From UHGV virus genome UHGV-1362024: a DNA stretch of 46,959 nucleotides; one strand, written 5' to 3'. The stretch comes from a virus. Below are positions 16,276 to 46,864 of the stretch, piece by piece. A program made the position numbers and the translations under genes. The notes under the pieces were generated by a model that was not told where the DNA came from, made no database searches, and worked only from the letters and a program-made list of their open reading frames with translations. Numbering within the stretch: the stretch's first letter is position 1; every line of letters starts with the position of its first letter.

Positions 16276-16320
16276 ATTTTATCATAAAGTGTTGACGTAG
16301 ATTGAGGGTGTCGCTATAGT
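16276..16320. promoter_or_regulatory. Bidirectional promoter module: minus-strand extended -10 (TGATAAAAT) back-to-back with plus-strand TTGACGTAGATTGA-N10-TATAGT (copy 2)
   Basis: ATTTTATCAtaaagtgTTGACGtagattgagggtgtcgcTATAGTgatgacgtagaaac. TTGACG-17-TATAGT is a near-consensus sigma70 promoter, and a second GACGTAGA copy sits at about +1. Confidence 0.6.
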
Positions 16321-24409: not shown

Positions 24410-24921
24410 GACTGGCGCGCCCCGGCAAGCAGCTTTTCAAACATCATCCTGTCACGGCTCATGCCAAACGGAATAACCTCCTGCCAGTAATATTTCCATG
24501 CTCCGCCGGGAAGCATTTCACGGTCAACCTGACCAATGCTTGCCAGGTAGCGCATGCGTGCCTTGAGGATGGTGTAATTGACGCCTACAGCCTCTGCTAT
24601 CTGCTTGCTCTTGCGTCCCGGATTCGCCTCAAGATACGTCTGAATTGCCAAATCAAGCGCGGTATTATCGGGATTGAGGAAATACTTAAAGCAGCGCCTG
24701 CCATGGCTGACGCTTTCCTCCTTAATAATAAATCCCATGCTCTCCAGCTCAATCAGATAACCTGTAACGCTGGCTCGGTTTGTCATGCCAGTCTGCTTGC
24801 GTATCATGGCATTGGTTGCGCCGCCGCAGCGCTCTATCACCGTTAGTATTTGCGTTTTAAAGTCCATTTGCGCGCTCCAGTGCATCCTGTTTGTAGTCGC
24901 TAACTGTATATAGGAAGCCAT
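24397..24921 (-). CDS. Hypothetical protein (174 aa), possible winged-helix DNA-binding protein
   Basis: Listed ORF; no confident motif. Confidence 0.35.
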   Translation of the reverse strand: MASYIQLATTNRMHWSAQMDFKTQILTVIERCGGATNAMIRKQTGMTNRASVTGYLIELESMGFIIKEESVSHGRRCFKYFLNPDNTALDLAIQTYLEANPGRKSKQIAEAVGVNYTILKARMRYLASIGQVDREMLPGGAWKYYWQEVIPFGMSRDRMMFEKLLAGARQSCGR

Positions 24922-25093
24922 TTCTGGTATTCCATGACCTTACAGCAGAGCAAAGGCGGACGTACTTATCACCTTTCTTTCCGCAATCATTGCACTCAAT
25001 AATCCACTTGGAATCATTTACGCAAGCAAAAATATTAAGGCTCCCGCAATCATGGCACTCAAGTAATCCACTACTGCTCATCATTGGTTTCAT
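24857..25093 (-). CDS. Lar-family restriction-alleviation-like zinc-finger protein
   Basis: Two CxxC pairs (CHDCGS...CNDCGKKG) followed by AVRSWNTRNG, resembling the conserved A.WN.R element of Lar-type proteins. 78 aa; the 5' end overlaps the neighbour. Confidence 0.45.
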   Translation of the reverse strand: MKPMMSSSGLLECHDCGSLNIFACVNDSKWIIECNDCGKKGDKYVRLCSAVRSWNTRNGFLYTVSDYKQDALERANGL

Positions 25094-25585: not shown

Positions 25586-25801
25586 TCAATCGGTAGTCTT
25601 ACCACGATGTAAAACGCCCGGTAGAGTTCTGTCCATCCATGACAACATTTGCGCTTCCTCGGCTTCATGGGCGGCCTCCATAGCAGCCAGATCAATGCGC
25701 TGCTCGATAGATTTAATGATTGACTCTGGCACATTAAGCATTTGCAGAGTCTCCCTGCAATCGCGCTTATGAACTTCTGTCACCTCCTGCCACTTTTTCA
25801 T
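25586..25801 (-). CDS. Small hypothetical protein (71 aa)
   Basis: ATGA-coupled to the upstream HNH gene. It conflicts with the overlapping listed ORF 25492-25734, which I consider less likely. Confidence 0.35.
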   Translation of the reverse strand: MKKWQEVTEVHKRDCRETLQMLNVPESIIKSIEQRIDLAAMEAAHEAEEAQMLSWMDRTLPGVLHRGKTTD

Positions 25802-26319
25802 TCCACACCACCTTTTATCATTCTTTTTGGCCTATTGATTCCATGGTTTTCATGGAAACCATATTTCATTTCAGCTTCAAGTCTGGCCTTTATTGCTTCG
25901 CTCTTTTCTGAAAAGCGACCTAAGTGCAGCCTTGTTCCGTTTAAGACTATTTGCGCGTACCACTTGCCGCGCTTTTTATCAAAACAAACACCAACAACAC
26001 CACTGGTGTTGTCGCTCCTGATTGAACTGTTTCTCGTGTTTTCTCTCCTGTTAACAAGCCTGAGATTCTCTATTCGGTTGTCATCTCTGATGTGGTTGAT
26101 GTGATCAATTTCCATGTCTTCCGGTATTGGTCCGTTAAATAGCTCCCAAACAATCCTGTGCTCATATGTCTGGGTGTATTTTACTTTTACCTTTCGATAA
26201 CCTGTCGTTGGCTCCAGGCACCCAATCCTTGCGCCATCCTTTACGTTGTTTGACGGCTTAACCTTCCAGTAAAGCTTGCCGTTTTCGTAAACAAACAAGT
26301 CAATAAAGTTCATATCCAC
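25798..26319 (-). CDS. HNH homing endonuclease with AP2 domain (paralog 2 of 3)
   Basis: HRIVWELFNGPIPEDMEIDHINHIRDDNRIENLRLV with an AP2-like C-terminus (SGVVGVCFDKKRGKWYAQIVLNGTRLHLGRF). Confidence 0.85.
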   Translation of the reverse strand: MDMNFIDLFVYENGKLYWKVKPSNNVKDGARIGCLEPTTGYRKVKVKYTQTYEHRIVWELFNGPIPEDMEIDHINHIRDDNRIENLRLVNRRENTRNSSIRSDNTSGVVGVCFDKKRGKWYAQIVLNGTRLHLGRFSEKSEAIKARLEAEMKYGFHENHGINRPKRMIKGGVE

Positions 26320-26359
26320 ATCACTCGCATTAAGATGTTATAATCTACAACACCTAGTA

Positions 26360-26385
26360 TTGACTAATTGACGTAGATTAGTCAA
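26360..26385. promoter_or_regulatory. Palindromic operator / divergent promoter region: TTGACTAAT-TGACGTAG-ATTAGTCAA (copy 3 of the TGACGTAGATT module)
   Basis: 9-bp inverted repeat flanking the conserved TGACGTAG core, between divergent operons. A TTATAAT box sits about 20 nt upstream, at 26338. Confidence 0.5.
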
Positions 26386-26408: not shown

Positions 26409-26609
26409 ATGGCGAGACAACGCAAAGAACCACTGGAAGTACTGACTGATATTATCGCTAAGCGCCAGCCGTTAAGCCTGCGAGATGTCAGATATTACGC
26501 GCACTGCTATGTAGCAATGCGCGAATGGAGTGCTGAAGAAATGTATGCGTTTGTGCGCGAACACTTCAGCGTGGATGAGAAAAACAAAGTTACGTTGAGG
26601 GTGGAGTGA
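26409..26609 (+). CDS. Hypothetical protein (66 aa)
   Basis: First gene of the plus-strand operon. Confidence 0.4.
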   Translation: MARQRKEPLEVLTDIIAKRQPLSLRDVRYYAHCYVAMREWSAEEMYAFVREHFSVDEKNKVTLRVE

Positions 26610-27079
26610 TGAAATACAAATACCTGAAAGGAAGTGCTGATTATTTTAATGGTCATGAAGATGCCGTTCTTGCTGTGAAGTCAGCAACCAGTGGCAAAAT
26701 CCACTACCTCAGCGCGGATTATGCAGGGCGAGATAAGGATATCGAAAAGGCTGGCGATATTGTTATCGCCCATCGTGAGCCAGTAACTGATGATGACTTG
26801 AATTGGCGCGCCATCTCAACAGAAGCCCTCATCACCGAGCGCGGCAACCGTTATGGCAAATTCAAAGACGGCGCAGAAATCATGCAGTCACTGAAAGACA
26901 CCATGCGAGACGTTGACGGCTGGAACAACCTGACGGCGAGCCAGAAGGAAGCGCTCGACATGATTCAGCATAAAATCGGTAGAATCCTGAATGGCGACCC
27001 GACATACGACGATAGCTGGAAGGACATTGCTGGCTATGCAACATTAATTGTTAATGAACTGAATGGGGAGGTAAAGTGA
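26606..27079 (+). CDS. Hypothetical protein (157 aa)
   Basis: ATGA-coupled. C-terminal helical segment ERGNRYGKFKDGAEIMQSLKD...LTASQKEALDMIQHKIGRIL. No confident family. Confidence 0.4.
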   Translation: MMKYKYLKGSADYFNGHEDAVLAVKSATSGKIHYLSADYAGRDKDIEKAGDIVIAHREPVTDDDLNWRAISTEALITERGNRYGKFKDGAEIMQSLKDTMRDVDGWNNLTASQKEALDMIQHKIGRILNGDPTYDDSWKDIAGYATLIVNELNGEVK

Positions 27080-27303
27080 TGGCACAATGCAAAAGCACTG
27101 AAGCACAAGAGTCTGGGCACTTTGAGTGCAATGGGTTTGCCGCACGATTAAAAGGCAAGCACCTGACCATTGAAGTGACTGGCGACAAAGTCAATGCTGC
27201 ATATGATTGCAGCCTGTTTACTCACGATGAGGTTGGGGTGATTATCAAGTGCATCCAGCACATCAACAAAAGTGTCAGCAAAGCGTCAATGGTGAAGTTA
27301 TGA
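27076..27303 (+). CDS. Hypothetical protein (75 aa)
   Basis: Coupled ORF. Confidence 0.4.
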   Translation: MMAQCKSTEAQESGHFECNGFAARLKGKHLTIEVTGDKVNAAYDCSLFTHDEVGVIIKCIQHINKSVSKASMVKL

Positions 27304-27428
27304 ATCGAGAGCCGGTAGCCTACATCATTACCAGCAATCGTGGCCGCCGCTATCTGGCGTTTGCTGGTAGTGTTGAGCACCAAAATGCAGCCATGTTTGG
27401 CTATGAGATGAAACCACTATACGAATGA
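27300..27428 (+). CDS. Small hypothetical protein (42 aa)
   Basis: Unlisted ORF MNREPVAYIITSNRGRRYLAFAGS..., ATGA-coupled. Confidence 0.3.
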   Translation: MNREPVAYIITSNRGRRYLAFAGSVEHQNAAMFGYEMKPLYE

Positions 27429-27437
27429 GGTGTAAAA

Positions 27438-27692
27438 ATGTCTTTAAGCTTTGGTGAGGCCTTAGAGGAGATGGGGATTGGATGCAAGGTCGCAAGAAAC
27501 GGGTGGAATGGAAAGGGTATGTTCCTGTTCATGATAGCAGGAGGGGCATGGGACTTTGAGTGCGACATTGATGGGGTTGATGGGCTTAATACGCTACCTT
27601 TTATCTGCATGAAAACGGCTGATGGGAAACTGGTTCCATGGCTGGCAAGCCAAACCGATATGATTGCAAGTGACTGGATGGTTATTGGTTGA
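27438..27692 (+). CDS. DUF2829-family protein (Tad2-like; candidate anti-Thoeris / signalling-nucleotide sponge)
   Basis: 84 aa. FGEALEEMGIGCKVARNGWNGKGMF and KTADGKLVPWLASQTDMIASDWMVIG match my recollection of the DUF2829 consensus (GWNGKGM...PWLASQTDM..DW). RBS GAGG; last gene before a terminator. Confidence 0.55.
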   Translation: MSLSFGEALEEMGIGCKVARNGWNGKGMFLFMIAGGAWDFECDIDGVDGLNTLPFICMKTADGKLVPWLASQTDMIASDWMVIG

Positions 27693-27696
27693 CGGC

Positions 27697-27720
27697 AAAG
27701 CCCCTTTACGGGGCTTTTTT
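27697..27720 (+). terminator. Rho-independent terminator (AAAGCCCCTTTACGGGGCTTTTTT)
   Basis: Hairpin plus T-run after the Tad2-like gene. Confidence 0.75.
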
Positions 27721-27857
27721 GTTGCTACAGGAATTGAGGCGCAGGGCCATATTCATCTTTTGCCGACTTGCTATACCGGCTTTTGCGTGCCGGTTGATAA
27801 CCATCTCTGCCTGAAGCCACATTGGCCGCCATTCTGTCATACTCCTCGCGCTTCTCT

Positions 27858-28352
27858 TTATTTAGCATTAACTGACCTCAGAGAGTTGTATTGCGCCTGG
27901 CATGTCAATCCTGCTTCTCTTGCTGAGTCAGCATATTCTGCCAGTTGTCGATTTCTTTCGACAGATTCGCTGAGCAGTTGGGAGAGCAAAACTCCGGTAC
28001 TGGCGGCTGGATTGCCAATGGACTCAGTTCTGGAATAATCGAGGAGCTGCTTTCTGATTGTGGCGAGCTGTTGCTGCAACCTGCCAGACTTAACAGCAGC
28101 AGCGGAAGCATCAGCACGCGCGGCATCAATGCGGTTTTGCGCTTCCTGCTCGATGGTCTTTTTGTCTTGCTCATGTTGTTCGCTTGCCTCTTTGTCTTTG
28201 GCCTTCTGCGCCTCTACGGCGGCCAGATATCCAGAGTGATATTTCTCCTTCCCGTAATTGACCCACTTTCCGTAGACAATCAGAGCCAGAAGAGCGACGC
28301 CAATGATAGCGGCAACAACTTTCCATTTAGCCTTGAGGATTTGCAGAATCAT
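27858..28352 (-). CDS. i-spanin (Rz-like)
   Basis: N-terminal TM helix (VVAAIIGVALLALIVYG) followed by a long charged coiled-coil periplasmic region; downstream of the holin. Confidence 0.7.
   Translation of the reverse strand: MILQILKAKWKVVAAIIGVALLALIVYGKWVNYGKEKYHSGYLAAVEAQKAKDKEASEQHEQDKKTIEQEAQNRIDAARADASAAAVKSGRLQQQLATIRKQLLDYSRTESIGNPAASTGVLLSQLLSESVERNRQLAEYADSAREAGLTCQAQYNSLRSVNAK
27905..28126 (-). CDS. o-spanin (Rz1-like lipoprotein) embedded in the +1 frame of the Rz gene
   Basis: Lipobox LLLLSLAGC, a Pro-rich mature region (PELSPLAIQPPVPEF), entirely inside the Rz ORF. The listed ORF starts at 28174, but the Met at 28126 (MPRVLMLPLL) is likely. Confidence 0.6.
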   Translation of the reverse strand: MPRVLMLPLLLLSLAGCSNSSPQSESSSSIIPELSPLAIQPPVPEFCSPNCSANLSKEIDNWQNMLTQQEKQD

Positions 28353-28572
28353 TTTTCAGCGCCTTATTCTCTTTCTTCATGCCGCGCATCTTCGCAAGCA
28401 TGGAGATGACCAGCACGGAGTAGCTGATTGCCTTAACCGTAAATGGTGGCAATGCGCTCTTGAGGTCGTCAGGCATCATCATCCAGACCTGCATCGCCAC
28501 ATCAGGGAATACCTGGAGGGCAGAGCATATTACCATCCAGATACCGATAAGCCAGTTAGTTAGGCGCCTCAT
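28327..28572 (-). CDS. Putative holin (two TM segments)
   Basis: 81 aa with TM1 LTNWLIGIWMVICSALQVF and TM2 FTVKAISYSVLVISMLA plus a charged C-terminus. ATGA-coupled to the lysozyme gene. Confidence 0.5.
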   Translation of the reverse strand: MRRLTNWLIGIWMVICSALQVFPDVAMQVWMMMPDDLKSALPPFTVKAISYSVLVISMLAKMRGMKKENKALKNDSANPQG

Positions 28573-29006
28573 GACATGTAGACCTGACGTTCAGCTGCGC
28601 GGCGCTTTGTGAGTCCGTTCATGACCTTGCCATTGGCGCGATTCCATACCCGGAACTGGTCGGCGGCGCAGGTGTAGCAGCAGGAATTATGCTTTTTCAG
28701 CAGAGTTGATTTACCAAAGTTACCAAGGCCAATGTTGTAGGCCAGCGACACCATTGCATCAAACTGCCCCTGAGTTGTTGGGGATGTGATGAGTGACGAA
28801 ACGCCGCTTTCAAATTTCGCTACGTCTTTATCAAACCATGCGTCAGCCATTGCCTGCGTGACCTTCATTCCCGGCTTAACGTCGCTTCCGGCATGACCGT
28901 ATCCGGCGGTGTACGGAGCGCCTCCGGTTGCCGGGTCAGGGTAAACTGCAAGCACTAGCCCTTCATGAGATTTAATTAAATTCTTTCCGCGCGTTGATAG
29001 TTTCAT
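28569..29006 (-). CDS. Endolysin, phage lysozyme (GH24, P22 gp19 / T4 E-like)
   Basis: EGLVLAVYPDP...YTAGYGH...FDAMVSLAYNIGLGNFGKSTLLKK aligns with P22 lysozyme EGERLKAYSD...TIGVGH...YDALCSLIFNIGKSAFAGSTVLRQ. RBS GGAGGT. Confidence 0.85.
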   Translation of the reverse strand: MKLSTRGKNLIKSHEGLVLAVYPDPATGGAPYTAGYGHAGSDVKPGMKVTQAMADAWFDKDVAKFESGVSSLITSPTTQGQFDAMVSLAYNIGLGNFGKSTLLKKHNSCCYTCAADQFRVWNRANGKVMNGLTKRRAAERQVYMS

Positions 29007-38988: not shown

Positions 38989-39017
38989 ACTATACGATGG
39001 CGCTCAATCTACGTCAA
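38989..39017 (-). promoter_or_regulatory. Minus-strand promoter (copy 7): TTGACGTAGATTGA-N10-TATAGT
   Basis: The reverse complement reads TTGACGtagattgagcgccatcgTATAGT; TTGACG-17-TATAGT is a near-consensus sigma70 promoter. Confidence 0.6.
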
Positions 39018-44471: not shown

Positions 44472-46334
44472 ATGAAATATACGCTAAGGCCATACCAGCA
44501 GGAAGCGGTTGACGCGGCTATGGCACATATCAGAAGCACAATTTCATCATGCGTAATAATTCTCCCTACTGGCGCAGGCAAGTCAATGGTTGTCGCTGAG
44601 CTTGCAGCACGCATCTATGAGATGAGTAAAAAGCGTGTGCTTTGCATTGCTCCAACCGGGGAACTTGTGACACAGAATCGATCTAAATACCTTTTAACTG
44701 GCGAGCCAGCAAGCATGTTCAGCGCCAAGGCTGGCCCTAAAAATCTGCGCCACCCTGTTGTTTTTGGCTCTCCTGTCACAATCAAAAACTCTATTGAAAT
44801 GTTCGGCGATAAATATGGAGCTGTAATTATTGACGAGTGCGACGGAATCACGCCAACCATTAAATTTATTATTAATGAGATGAGGCGTCGCAACCCAAAG
44901 CTGCGCATCATTGGCATGACCGCAACGCCTTATCGCCTTGGTACGGGGTACATATTTAAAGATCATTACCAGTCCGGCCCCACTGATGAAGAGACAGCCA
45001 TTGATCCTTACTATGACAAGGTTGTTTATGAGCTTGAGGCAAAATTCCTGATTGATAATGGCTATCTGACTCCTCCAGTTACTGAGCACGTAGAAGAAGA
45101 ATATGATACCTCTGGACTTGAGAAGGATAAGCTTGGGCGTTATACAACGGCATCGGTAGAGCGCGCCATGGTTGGAAAAGGACGCAAGACGTCTCGCATT
45201 GTTGAGGATATCGTCAGGCGATCAGTGAATCGCCGGGGAACTATGATTTTCGCCAGCACGAAAAAGCATGCCATGGAGATTATGGAATCTCTGCCTCCTG
45301 GTAGTTATAGCTATGTTTTCGGTGATATGCCTACTGCTGAGCGCAATAAGGCGATATCAGATTTTAAGGCGCAGAAGGTTAAATACATTGTCAACCAGAA
45401 TATCCTTACGGTTGGCGTCGATGTGCCACATTGCGATCATATTGCTGTAATGCGCGCCACAGAGTCGCCGCGCCTGTATCAGCAGATAATAGGTCGTGGA
45501 ACCAGGCTATACGAAGGTAAGGAAAACTTTCTCGTTAGCGACTATGCAGGAAACATAGAGCGTCATTTTGCTGAGACAGGAGACCTGTTTACTCCTGAGA
45601 TTAAAGCAACACGAAAAAAACCATCTGTTCCAATGGAAGTAAAATGCCCATCGTGCGGATTTGTTAATGAATTTGGAGTGCGTCCAAATCCAGAAGGCCT
45701 TGAGATGGACAGTGAGGGATATTGGCTTGATCTATCTGGTGACAGAATAATGGTAGAAATTTATGATAAATCTGGCGAAAAGATAGGGCAAAAGCCAATG
45801 CCCGGACACTTTGGGCGCCGCTGTAAGAACTATATTATGGTTGGTGCGCTGCGTGAAATGCGTCGCTGCACGTATAAATGGTCATTCAAAGAGTGCCCTG
45901 ATTGTGGTTTTGAAAATGATATTGCTGCTCGTAACTGCGTGAGCTGCAAAGCAGAAATTATTGATCCAAACAAGAAGCTACAGGAAGAGGCTGCAAGACT
46001 TGATGCTGCGCCAGATGCAACCAAGCAATCAAAAGTTACAATGATGAGCATAACTCGCCACTATGTAAGCAGTGGTGATGATATGTTGGTAGTTAAGTTT
46101 GCTATTGAGCAGTCGCCATGGTTCGTTAACAAATTCTTTAAACCCATGGCAGAAAAGACGTGGCAAAGAAGAGAATGGGAAGACTTCAGTATTAAATCTT
46201 TTGGAGAGGTACTGGAAATAGATGAAGCACTATCTAGAAGAGAAGATGCCACACATCCTACTGCCATTATGTTCAGAAAGGATAAAGGCAGCAAATATTA
46301 CAATGTGAAAGGAATGTATTGGGGTGAGTTATGA
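44472..46334 (+). CDS. Superfamily II DEAD/DEAH-type helicase with C-terminal zinc-ribbon region
   Basis: Motif I LPTGAGKS, motif II IIDECD, arginine-finger-type QQIIGRGTR, C-terminal CPSCG...CPDCG...CVSCK. RBS CGAGAGGACA. Confidence 0.85.
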   Translation: MKYTLRPYQQEAVDAAMAHIRSTISSCVIILPTGAGKSMVVAELAARIYEMSKKRVLCIAPTGELVTQNRSKYLLTGEPASMFSAKAGPKNLRHPVVFGSPVTIKNSIEMFGDKYGAVIIDECDGITPTIKFIINEMRRRNPKLRIIGMTATPYRLGTGYIFKDHYQSGPTDEETAIDPYYDKVVYELEAKFLIDNGYLTPPVTEHVEEEYDTSGLEKDKLGRYTTASVERAMVGKGRKTSRIVEDIVRRSVNRRGTMIFASTKKHAMEIMESLPPGSYSYVFGDMPTAERNKAISDFKAQKVKYIVNQNILTVGVDVPHCDHIAVMRATESPRLYQQIIGRGTRLYEGKENFLVSDYAGNIERHFAETGDLFTPEIKATRKKPSVPMEVKCPSCGFVNEFGVRPNPEGLEMDSEGYWLDLSGDRIMVEIYDKSGEKIGQKPMPGHFGRRCKNYIMVGALREMRRCTYKWSFKECPDCGFENDIAARNCVSCKAEIIDPNKKLQEEAARLDAAPDATKQSKVTMMSITRHYVSSGDDMLVVKFAIEQSPWFVNKFFKPMAEKTWQRREWEDFSIKSFGEVLEIDEALSRREDATHPTAIMFRKDKGSKYYNVKGMYWGEL

Positions 46335-46789
46335 TTTTTCCTGAGTGGTTAAAGATTTATGGTGAAAAGGACTACCGCAATAAAAAATGTCCTGTAGAAG
46401 ATGCTGAACTTGTAACATTCATAAATCAGTTGAAGAGAATGTATCCTGACAGTTTTGGGCGCCTTGTTCTTCACGTCCCAAACGAGGGGAAGAGAAGAGC
46501 GCACGAAGTTAATAATCTAAAAAAGAAGGGAGCTTTAAACAAAGGAGCTTCAGATATAATAATCCCTGGGAACCCATCACTTGTCATTGAGATGAAGAGG
46601 AGAGACCATACACTTTGCGAATGGGAGGATGGTCAGCTTGAGTATCTTGAGGCAAGTAAAAAAGTAGGGTGCTTTGTGTGCGTATGCCTTGGATGGGAAG
46701 CTGCCATGATGGCATTCAATGACTGGAGAGCAACGCATTACCCTTTGAAAAAGCCTCATGATAAGAGCATACAAATTGATAGTTTTTGA
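46331..46789 (+). CDS. VRR-NUC domain nuclease (PD-(D/E)xK fold)
   Basis: GASDIIIPGNPSLVIEMKRRD motif typical of VRR-NUC (D...E.K). ATGA-coupled to the helicase. Confidence 0.65.
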   Translation: MIFPEWLKIYGEKDYRNKKCPVEDAELVTFINQLKRMYPDSFGRLVLHVPNEGKRRAHEVNNLKKKGALNKGASDIIIPGNPSLVIEMKRRDHTLCEWEDGQLEYLEASKKVGCFVCVCLGWEAAMMAFNDWRATHYPLKKPHDKSIQIDSF

Positions 46790-46864
46790 ATGAAACCATC
46801 AAACACGTCAAAATCACCAGCAAACGAGCCGACGATGGATTTTGATGATGATATTCCGTTTTGA
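46790..46864 (+). CDS. 24-codon mini-ORF ending in an SSB-type tail (MKPSNTSKSPANEPTMDFDDDIPF); duplicated copy of the SSB 3' end
   Basis: The 39 nt GAGCCGACGATGGATTTTGATGATGATATTCCGTTTTGA are 36/39 identical to the SSB gene 3' end. The ATG abuts the VRR-NUC stop (TGAATG). It is followed by a terminator paralogous to the SSB terminator. Confidence 0.35.
   Translation: MKPSNTSKSPANEPTMDFDDDIPF

Follow-up and report, generated by a model that had tools for sequence, protein, structure and literature searches.

Tad2 sponges and the locus in UHGV-1362024

Tad1, Acb2 and Tad2 are small oligomeric phage proteins that hold, but do not degrade, a nucleotide immune signal (PMC12393519, PMC10680739), and for Tad2 the family, the structures, the pockets and the mechanism have already been published. 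In Tad2 of the Bacillus myophage SPO1 (gp34.65; PDB 8SME/8SMF/8SMG and 8WJE), the contacts for 1''-3' glycocyclic ADP-ribose (gcADPR) are W25, N26, I63, T65, D67, H71, W73, S76, T78 and D79 (10.1101/2023.05.01.538930). Those of HgmTad2, also known as AcrIIA7 (8KBI-8KBM, 8WJC), are W21, N22, G23, M76, A78, T82, V84, W87, L88, S90, T92 and D93 (PMC10680739). HgmTad2 and SptTad2 (8WJD) have a second pocket that takes cGG, cGAMP and cUG and is made from an insertion of 35-41 amino acids (aa) together with R31, K46, S47, F70 and N85, whereas SPO1 Tad2, with an insertion of 24 aa, bound no cyclic nucleotide (PMC10680739). ModTad2 is a binder of histidine-ADP-ribose (His-ADPR) and has no blocking effect on type I Thoeris (10.1101/2024.01.03.573942). 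According to the literature, four out of five diverse homologs of Tad2 acted as inhibitors of type I Thoeris, and only about 1% of Tad2 proteins are predicted to be without function in the binding of gcADPR. Tad2 and AcrIIA7 have been merged into one detectable family in AntiDefenseFinder (PMC11724313). Here we describe a Tad2-family (DUF2829) gene at positions 27438-27692 of the virus genome UHGV-1362024, which was analysed as one stretch of 46,959 nucleotides (nt), called the window below. Pfam or AntiDefenseFinder would label this gene.

The gene runs on the plus strand from an ATG start to a TGA stop, and its translation is the 84-aa protein MSLSFGEALEEMGIGCKVARNGWNGKGMFLFMIAGGAWDFECDIDGVDGLNTLPFICMKTADGKLVPWLASQTDMIASDWMVIG. 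Based on its sequence and on a structural model, the protein is probably a homotetrameric sponge that sequesters 1''-3' gcADPR, or 3'cADPR (and 2'cADPR), and thereby disarms type I Thoeris.

Family assignment, fold and selection

The assignment of the 84-aa protein to the Tad2/DUF2829 family, made by profile search and structure prediction, is as secure as computation allows. PF11195 (Tad2-like, formerly DUF2829) gave a match of 86 bits (E = 2.5e-24; gathering cut-off 25) that covered profile positions 2-73 of 73. A phmmer search against the PDB sequences returned only Tad2 proteins, namely HgmTad2/AcrIIA7 (3.1e-18), ModTad2 (2e-17), SptTad2 (6e-16) and SPO1 Tad2 (9e-16). The AlphaFold2 monomer model, built on 86 homologs, had a mean predicted local distance difference test (pLDDT) score of 94.6, with the elements H5-13, E17-20, E29-33, E55-59, E65-67, H72-76 and E80-83. 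It shows the Tad2 order of an N-terminal helix, an antiparallel beta-sheet and a short helix ahead of the last strand. When the model was compared with the PDB by Foldseek, the top 24 hits were exclusively Tad2 structures (template modelling (TM) score 0.70-0.80, 36-44% identity), and the 25th hit had E > 1. Tad1 and Acb2, whose folds and families are unrelated to that of the protein, gave no sequence or structure match in Pfam, the phmmer search of the PDB or Foldseek. A preliminary description of this DNA had placed the product in DUF2829, with a PF11195 search and a comparison to solved Tad2 structures as the checks. Both bear the assignment out, and the two sequence blocks on which it was based, ARNGWNGKGMF near the N-terminus and a second one at the C-terminus, are indeed present in the translation.

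Comparison of the gene in the window with its copies in three related loci gave 6 synonymous and 0 nonsynonymous changes for L001, 7 and 0 for L053, and 11 and 0 for L034. With approximately 51 synonymous and 201 nonsynonymous sites in the gene, the chance that 11 changes would all be synonymous is, by rough estimate, less than 1 in a million, which is strong sequence evidence for purifying selection. Taken together with the PF11195 match, changes that are almost only synonymous argue that this is not a chance open reading frame (ORF). Its GC content of 0.478 is not anomalous when compared to 0.48 for the window, where no second Tad2-like ORF was found.

Main binding pocket and proposed mechanism

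The published contact lists were transferred to the protein via HMMER and MAFFT alignments. The main pocket is then made up of W23, N24, G25, M58, T60, D62, K64, V66, W68, L69, S71, T73 and D74, and each of these residues is identical to its counterpart in SPO1 Tad2, in HgmTad2 or in both. Eight of the ten SPO1 contacts are conserved identically (W25/N26/T65/D67/W73/S76/T78/D79 correspond to W23/N24/T60/D62/W68/S71/T73/D74), and the other two are conservative replacements, I63 by M58 and H71 by V66, both of which match HgmTad2 (M76 and V84). Conversely, 10 of the 12 gcADPR contacts of HgmTad2 are identical, and at the remaining positions T60 and K64 are the SPO1 residues. The WNG loop, the M/I-x-T strand and the W-x-x-S-x-T-D segment that constitute the Tad2 signature are all present. 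Across an alignment of the 86-sequence clade, the pocket columns are 87-100% conserved, with the exception of K64 (74%).

SPO1 Tad2 resembles the protein in Pfam family, fold (Foldseek TM 0.70-0.78), length (89 vs 84 aa) and short insertion (24 vs 21 aa), and both stem from virulent phages. It differs in overall sequence (approximately 40-44% identity), in an insertion of unrelated sequence, in I63/H71 as opposed to M/V, and in its origin from a Bacillus myophage rather than from a siphophage of Gram-negative enterobacteria.

In the mechanism that we propose, host RNA polymerase would transcribe the gene as the last of a five-gene cassette, and translation would start from the gene's own Shine-Dalgarno sequence. 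The protein would assemble into a homotetramer with a pocket at each of two inter-dimer interfaces, formed by the loop W23-N24-G25, the strand carrying M58, T60, D62, K64 and V66, and the segment W68-L69-x-S71-x-T73-D74. These pockets would take up 3'cADPR, the product of the Thoeris Toll/interleukin-1 receptor (TIR) protein, and probably also 1''-2' gcADPR, non-covalently and without degradation. The Thoeris effector ThsA would stay inactive and the phage would evade abortive infection by type I Thoeris. No block of cyclic-oligonucleotide-based antiphage signalling systems (CBASS) that use cGG or cGAMP would be expected, because the long beta2-beta3 insertion is absent. We infer the sponge function from homology; the tetramer, the ligand, the timing of expression and the anti-Thoeris phenotype are likewise predictions.

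Alternative ligands and functions

Several points weigh against this assignment. Depending on the member, Tad2 proteins inhibit CBASS, Pycsar or Thoeris of type I, II or IV, and in some cases they do so by means of a second pocket, located at the other interface. In the same screen, none of the seven systems was inhibited by 19 of the 84 sponge homologs (PMC12393519). Our literature search yielded no paper tying this phage group to Tad2, the promoter assignment for the cassette rests on consensus matches only, and the short insertion (AGGAWDFECD...) aligns better with that of ModTad2 than with that of SPO1 Tad2. It is conceivable, although on balance unlikely, that the protein is a Tad2-family sponge with another or an additional ligand, which could be His-ADPR (type II Thoeris), N7-cADPR (type IV), cUMP/cCMP (Pycsar, bound in a second, intra-dimer interface pocket) or an undiscovered signal. 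Tad2 members have been shown to act against each such system, Tad2_71 inhibits Thoeris I, II and IV, and MoTad2 holds cUMP in a second pocket (Hadary et al., PMC12393519). ModTad2/MoTad2 (8V3E, 9EIB) resemble the protein in fold (TM 0.75-0.78), in length, in insertion length and in the GG-aromatic...D pattern with which the insertion begins, and the column of W38 is aromatic in 84 of the 86 clade members. From this likeness of the insertions, the protein may possess a second pocket, for cUMP, like that of ModTad2. However, the insertion residues are far less conserved in the clade than the main pocket, and the latter agrees everywhere with the gcADPR binders, whereas it differs from the His-ADPR and cUMP/cCMP binder ModTad2 at four positions, K64 (D), V66 (A), L69 (T) and T73 (S). 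The ModTad2 segment reads WTPSVSDI as compared to WLASQTDM here. In a partial test that covered this pocket segment and the four positions, the W-T-P-S-V-S-D pocket of the His-ADPR clade (ModTad2, TmoTad2, CcaTad2) was replaced by W-L-A-S-Q-T-D.

A dual Thoeris and CBASS sponge in the manner of HgmTad2/SptTad2, binding cGG, 3'3'-cGAMP or cUG, would fit the shared family. HgmTad2 and SptTad2 are the best sequence and fold matches (HgmTad2/AcrIIA7 heads the PDB sequence matches), and their C-terminal pocket segment WLASQTDM is identical to that of the protein. The beta2-beta3 insertion is nevertheless only 21 aa long, as compared to 41 aa in HgmTad2, and thus closer to that of SPO1 Tad2. The HMMER alignment to HgmTad2 breaks into two stretches that skip the insertion, and the cyclic-dinucleotide contacts are not conserved: R31 is replaced by I33 and F70 by T52, N85 falls in a gap, and S47, K46 and L36 are without counterpart. 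The combination of long insertion and R31, S47, F70 and N85 contacts that defines the cyclic-dinucleotide subgroup (HgmTad2, SptTad2, SaTad2) is absent from the protein. For this reason the protein is predicted to resemble the gcADPR half of HgmTad2 only, and a role in CBASS or cyclic-oligonucleotide binding is unlikely as judged from these residues. The cyclic-oligonucleotide option raised in the preliminary description probably does not apply, and the dual sponge, for which we see very little room, was discarded as a candidate on insertion length and missing contact residues. The labels of some relatives point to another function, inhibition of Cas9 by an AcrIIA7-type anti-CRISPR: GenBank homologs in the Escherichia phages Louie and Huey are annotated 'anti-CRISPR protein', and PDB entry 8kbi is entitled 'Inhibitor of Type II CRISPR-Cas system'. 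To our knowledge, Klebsiella has type I CRISPR-Cas systems and not type II-A. HgmTad2/AcrIIA7 and other Tad2 homologs failed to inhibit SpyCas9 in vitro and in vivo (PMC10680739), and on these published negative data we rejected the anti-CRISPR function, which we regard as extremely improbable. Finally, the gene is missing from about 90% of the relatives and must be dispensable, and the inactive sponge homologs mentioned above could be taken to suggest a selfish passenger or a defence-unrelated gene without counter-defence function in this phage. Against this stand the strong purifying selection and the intact pocket residues, the co-transcription with core genes and the good ribosome-binding site, and the exchange between diverged backbones with the protein sequence kept (see below), which make a mere passenger highly unlikely. 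Of all these assignments, the gcADPR sponge has the best support.

Organization of the cassette

The Tad2-like gene lies at the end of a run of five plus-strand ORFs (Table 1), of which c1 to c4 precede it. Between c4 and the Tad2-like gene there is a 9-nt spacer, whereas the other junctions overlap (GTGATG, GTGATG and ATGA); such overlapping stop and start codons are the usual mark of a co-translated operon. The start of c2 was placed by the ORF lister at a GTG at 26606; we assign it to the ATG at 26609, with which the homologs open (MKYKYLKG). No match to c3 was found in Pfam or PHROG.

Table 1. Coordinates of the features in and around the cassette of UHGV-1362024. Presence is given for 61 cassettes, the 60 syntenic loci and the window.
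Feature	Position	Strand	Evidence and remarks
HNH_3/AP2 homing-type endonuclease	25798-26319	-	left flank; starts inside the promoter-like region of the cassette
Promoter-like site P1 (TCCACA, 18-nt spacer, TATAAT, upstream TG as extended -10)	26315-26344	+	consensus scan, 10/12 matches
Palindromic element TTGACTAATTGACGTAGATTAGTCAA, 26 nt	26360-26385	both	TTGACT -35-like hexamers on each strand; holds the TTGACGTAGATT core
c1, 66-aa core cassette gene, function unknown	26409-26609	+	phrog_14963 E = 1.3e-39; 54/61 cassettes
c2, 156-aa core cassette gene, DUF6378 C-terminal domain	26609-27079	+	PF19905 27.7 bits (cut-off 27.1); phrog_17775 E = 1.2e-82; 61/61 cassettes
c3, ~74-aa variable cassette gene, function unknown	27076/27079-27303	+	19/61 cassettes
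c4, 42-aa near-core cassette gene	27300-27428	+	phrog_34266 E = 2.4e-15; 46/61 cassettes; ATGA overlap with c3
Shine-Dalgarno-like GAGGTG	27427-27432	+	read from the sequence; 5 nt ahead of the Tad2-like ATG; overlaps the c4 stop codon
Tad2-family (DUF2829) gene	27438-27692	+	PF11195, PDB sequence matches, AlphaFold2, Foldseek, pocket residues, purifying selection
Intrinsic-terminator-like hairpin AAAGCCCCTTTACGGGGCTTT followed by a T-run, G+C-rich	27697-27723	+	scan; begins 4 nt past the Tad2-like stop
Rz-like spanin	27858-28352	-	right flank, lysis block
Endolysin	28569-29006	-	right flank, lysis block
TTGACGTAGATT copies	16292, 26368, 29048, 34029	+	exact
TTGACGTAGATT copy	39006-39017	-	exact
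TTGACGTAGATT copy	11100	+	one mismatch

Upstream of c1, approximately 100 nt are strongly conserved among 63 related sequences, and the pattern TTCCACA-N18-TGnTAnAAT is retained; P1 presumably works as a promoter. Between P1 and c1 lies the palindrome TTGACTAATTGACGTAGATTAGTCAA, with 9-bp inverted arms TTGACTAAT...ATTAGTCAA, which separates the divergent minus-strand genes from the cassette; the whole element occurs once in the window and is kept in 63 relatives. A promoter-like site on the minus strand was flagged by the consensus scan at 26385-26356. From its sequence, the element may be a back-to-back promoter pair, a divergent promoter/operator or the binding site of a regulator. The 12-mer TTGACGTAGATT at its core is found in the window in five exact copies and one with a single mismatch, as compared to 0.27 expected by chance. 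Every copy is intergenic and just upstream of a transcription unit, and TATAGT follows 17 nt past those at 16292 and 39006. The 12-mer has the appearance of a promoter or operator module specific to the phage. At the other end of the cassette, the scan placed the terminator-like hairpin and its T-run at 27697-27717, and the same hairpin was found after c4 and its downstream insert, where there is one, in 43 related loci.

These observations agree with most of what the preliminary description had said of the surroundings: that the gene is the last of a five-gene plus-strand operon (26409-27692; five coupled ORFs were found), that this operon has its own conserved promoter module (the recurrent TTGACGTAGATT and the conserved region upstream of c1) and that it has its own terminator (the hairpin and T-run right after the gene, conserved in relatives). 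The statement that it is embedded in an opposite-strand late region is accurate in part: genes of opposite strand lie on both sides, and those on the right form the lysis block, but on the left the HNH gene is followed by a minus-strand block of small regulator-like or accessory genes.

An accessory slot after c4

The closest genomes are those of Klebsiella siphophages of about 46-48 kb, including KpV2811, BUCT541 and Flyfo siphovirus Tbat1_6; pIS4-A and pYD38-A also match, and by taxonomy lookup pIS4-A is classified as a Roufvirus. Tbat1_6 encodes a 100% identical protein, which GenBank labels 'protein of unknown function DUF2829'. In BUCT541 the same cassette occurs without the Tad2-like gene, and the 42-aa ORF leads directly to the same terminator hairpin. 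In the 60 syntenic loci, which stem mostly from IMG/VR, the gene was present in six (L001, L028, L034, L053, L062, L065), always 9-13 nt past c4.

We defined the slot as the sequence from the c4 stop codon to the conserved terminator AAAGCCCCnnnnGGGGCTTTTTT, and tabulated its content for 43 loci and the window. It is empty (22-25 nt) in 22 cases and holds the Tad2-like gene in seven. A 71-aa gene takes its place in six loci (L003, L004, L020, L038, L048, L052), a 58-aa gene in three (L031, L032, L057), a 54-aa gene in another three (L012, L013, L016), and a 55-aa gene (L037), a 31-aa ORF and an HNH endonuclease (L011) were seen once each. The cargoes of 71, 58, 54 and 55 aa gave no Pfam match above threshold, matched only PHROGs of unknown function and had no PDB match better than E = 0.1. 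Fixed site, presence/absence polymorphism, alternative cargo and conserved flanks, which together characterize an accessory hotspot, were thus all found. The placement in an accessory position proposed in the preliminary description holds for this gene, which alone is either present or absent between the 42-aa ORF and the conserved terminator. The anti-defence placement also proposed there does not extend to the cassette overall, which is a conserved operon in which certain slots vary: c1, c2 and c4 form its core, and the variable part is made up of c3 and several other inserts.

The stretch between c2 and c4 (27076-27428 and its equivalents in L001-L065) is also mosaic. Apart from c3, it contains a predicted membrane protein of approximately 120-137 aa (17 loci), a 73-aa protein (13) or an 87-aa protein (10).

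The c4+Tad2 module of L034 is 93-96% identical to that of the window at the nucleotide level, and over L034 and L065 the range is 85-96%. Identity of c1, c2 and Rz in these two loci is 74-83% or undetectable. Past the terminator, L034 shows 67% over 162 nt and L065 aligns only in the terminator hairpin of approximately 28 nt (89%). A module that is similar while its flanks have diverged argues for horizontal movement between diverged backbones.

By position, the 71-, 58-, 54- and 55-aa cargoes are candidate counter-defence genes. We put forward, as a tentative and rather doubtful proposal, that the slot is a dedicated single-gene counter-defence site in Roufvirus-like phages, with the other cargoes as unrecognised counter-defence proteins, and/or that the short-insert enterobacterial Tad2 clade binds a signal other than gcADPR via its conserved aromatic insertion.

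Other observations in the window

Of the 60 related loci, about nine (L004, L008-L010, L017, L018, L024, L060) carry in the same place a 99%-identical copy of the HNH gene at the left edge of the cassette. Mobile endonucleases cluster near the cassette, given this gene and the different HNH gene in the slot of L011. Further to the left, the minus strand encodes a 78-aa double-CxxC zinc-ribbon protein (24857-25093) with a weak match to Lar-like restriction alleviation proteins (phrog_599, E = 1e-6; PF14354 below threshold), and the syntenic proteins of Tbat1_6 and AB4P2 carry a Lar-like annotation. The gene lies 2.4 kb from the Tad2-like gene and is possibly a second one with a counter-defence role.

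In the c2 protein the N-terminal half is variable, whereas the C-terminal half (residues ~72-155), which is DUF6378, is conserved and also stands alone in distant viral contigs (L052-L081). The PHROGs label 'phosphofructokinase' on a c2-related family looks doubtful. No PDB relative of c2 was found by sequence search, and its AlphaFold2 model (pLDDT 49), for which the input alignment was shallow, could not be used.

A 24-aa ORF, MKPSNTSKSPANEPTMDFDDDIPF (46790-46864, plus strand), adjoins the stop codon of a 152-aa ORF (46331-46789; a VRR-NUC-like nuclease in a relative). It encodes little beyond a C-terminal tail of the type found in single-stranded DNA-binding protein (SSB), and a 178-aa protein of the phage (43881-44417, plus strand) also ends in ...PPMDFDEDIPF. 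In BUCT541, KpV2811 and ZX4 the corresponding DNA belongs to a full-length SSB gene, of which it forms the 3' end, and the ORF in the window is therefore most simply read as the remnant of a module swap. With its ATG retained, it could also be translated as an SSB-tail decoy.

Significance for the phage group

Most GenBank copies of the Tad2-like protein are labelled 'hypothetical protein', and in UniRef a 64%-identical homolog from a Klebsiella podophage is named 'Thoeris anti-defense 2-like'. The gene raises no new question about Tad2 itself. It marks about 10% of this group of Klebsiella-type siphophages as likely Thoeris evaders, which is relevant to the choice or engineering of therapeutic phages, and Tbat1_6 with the gene and BUCT541 without it are near-isogenic natural controls. 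Most worth pursuing are the slot and its unknown alternative cargoes: the cargoes exchanged at this fixed site are a handful of small proteins that can be screened for counter-defence activity.

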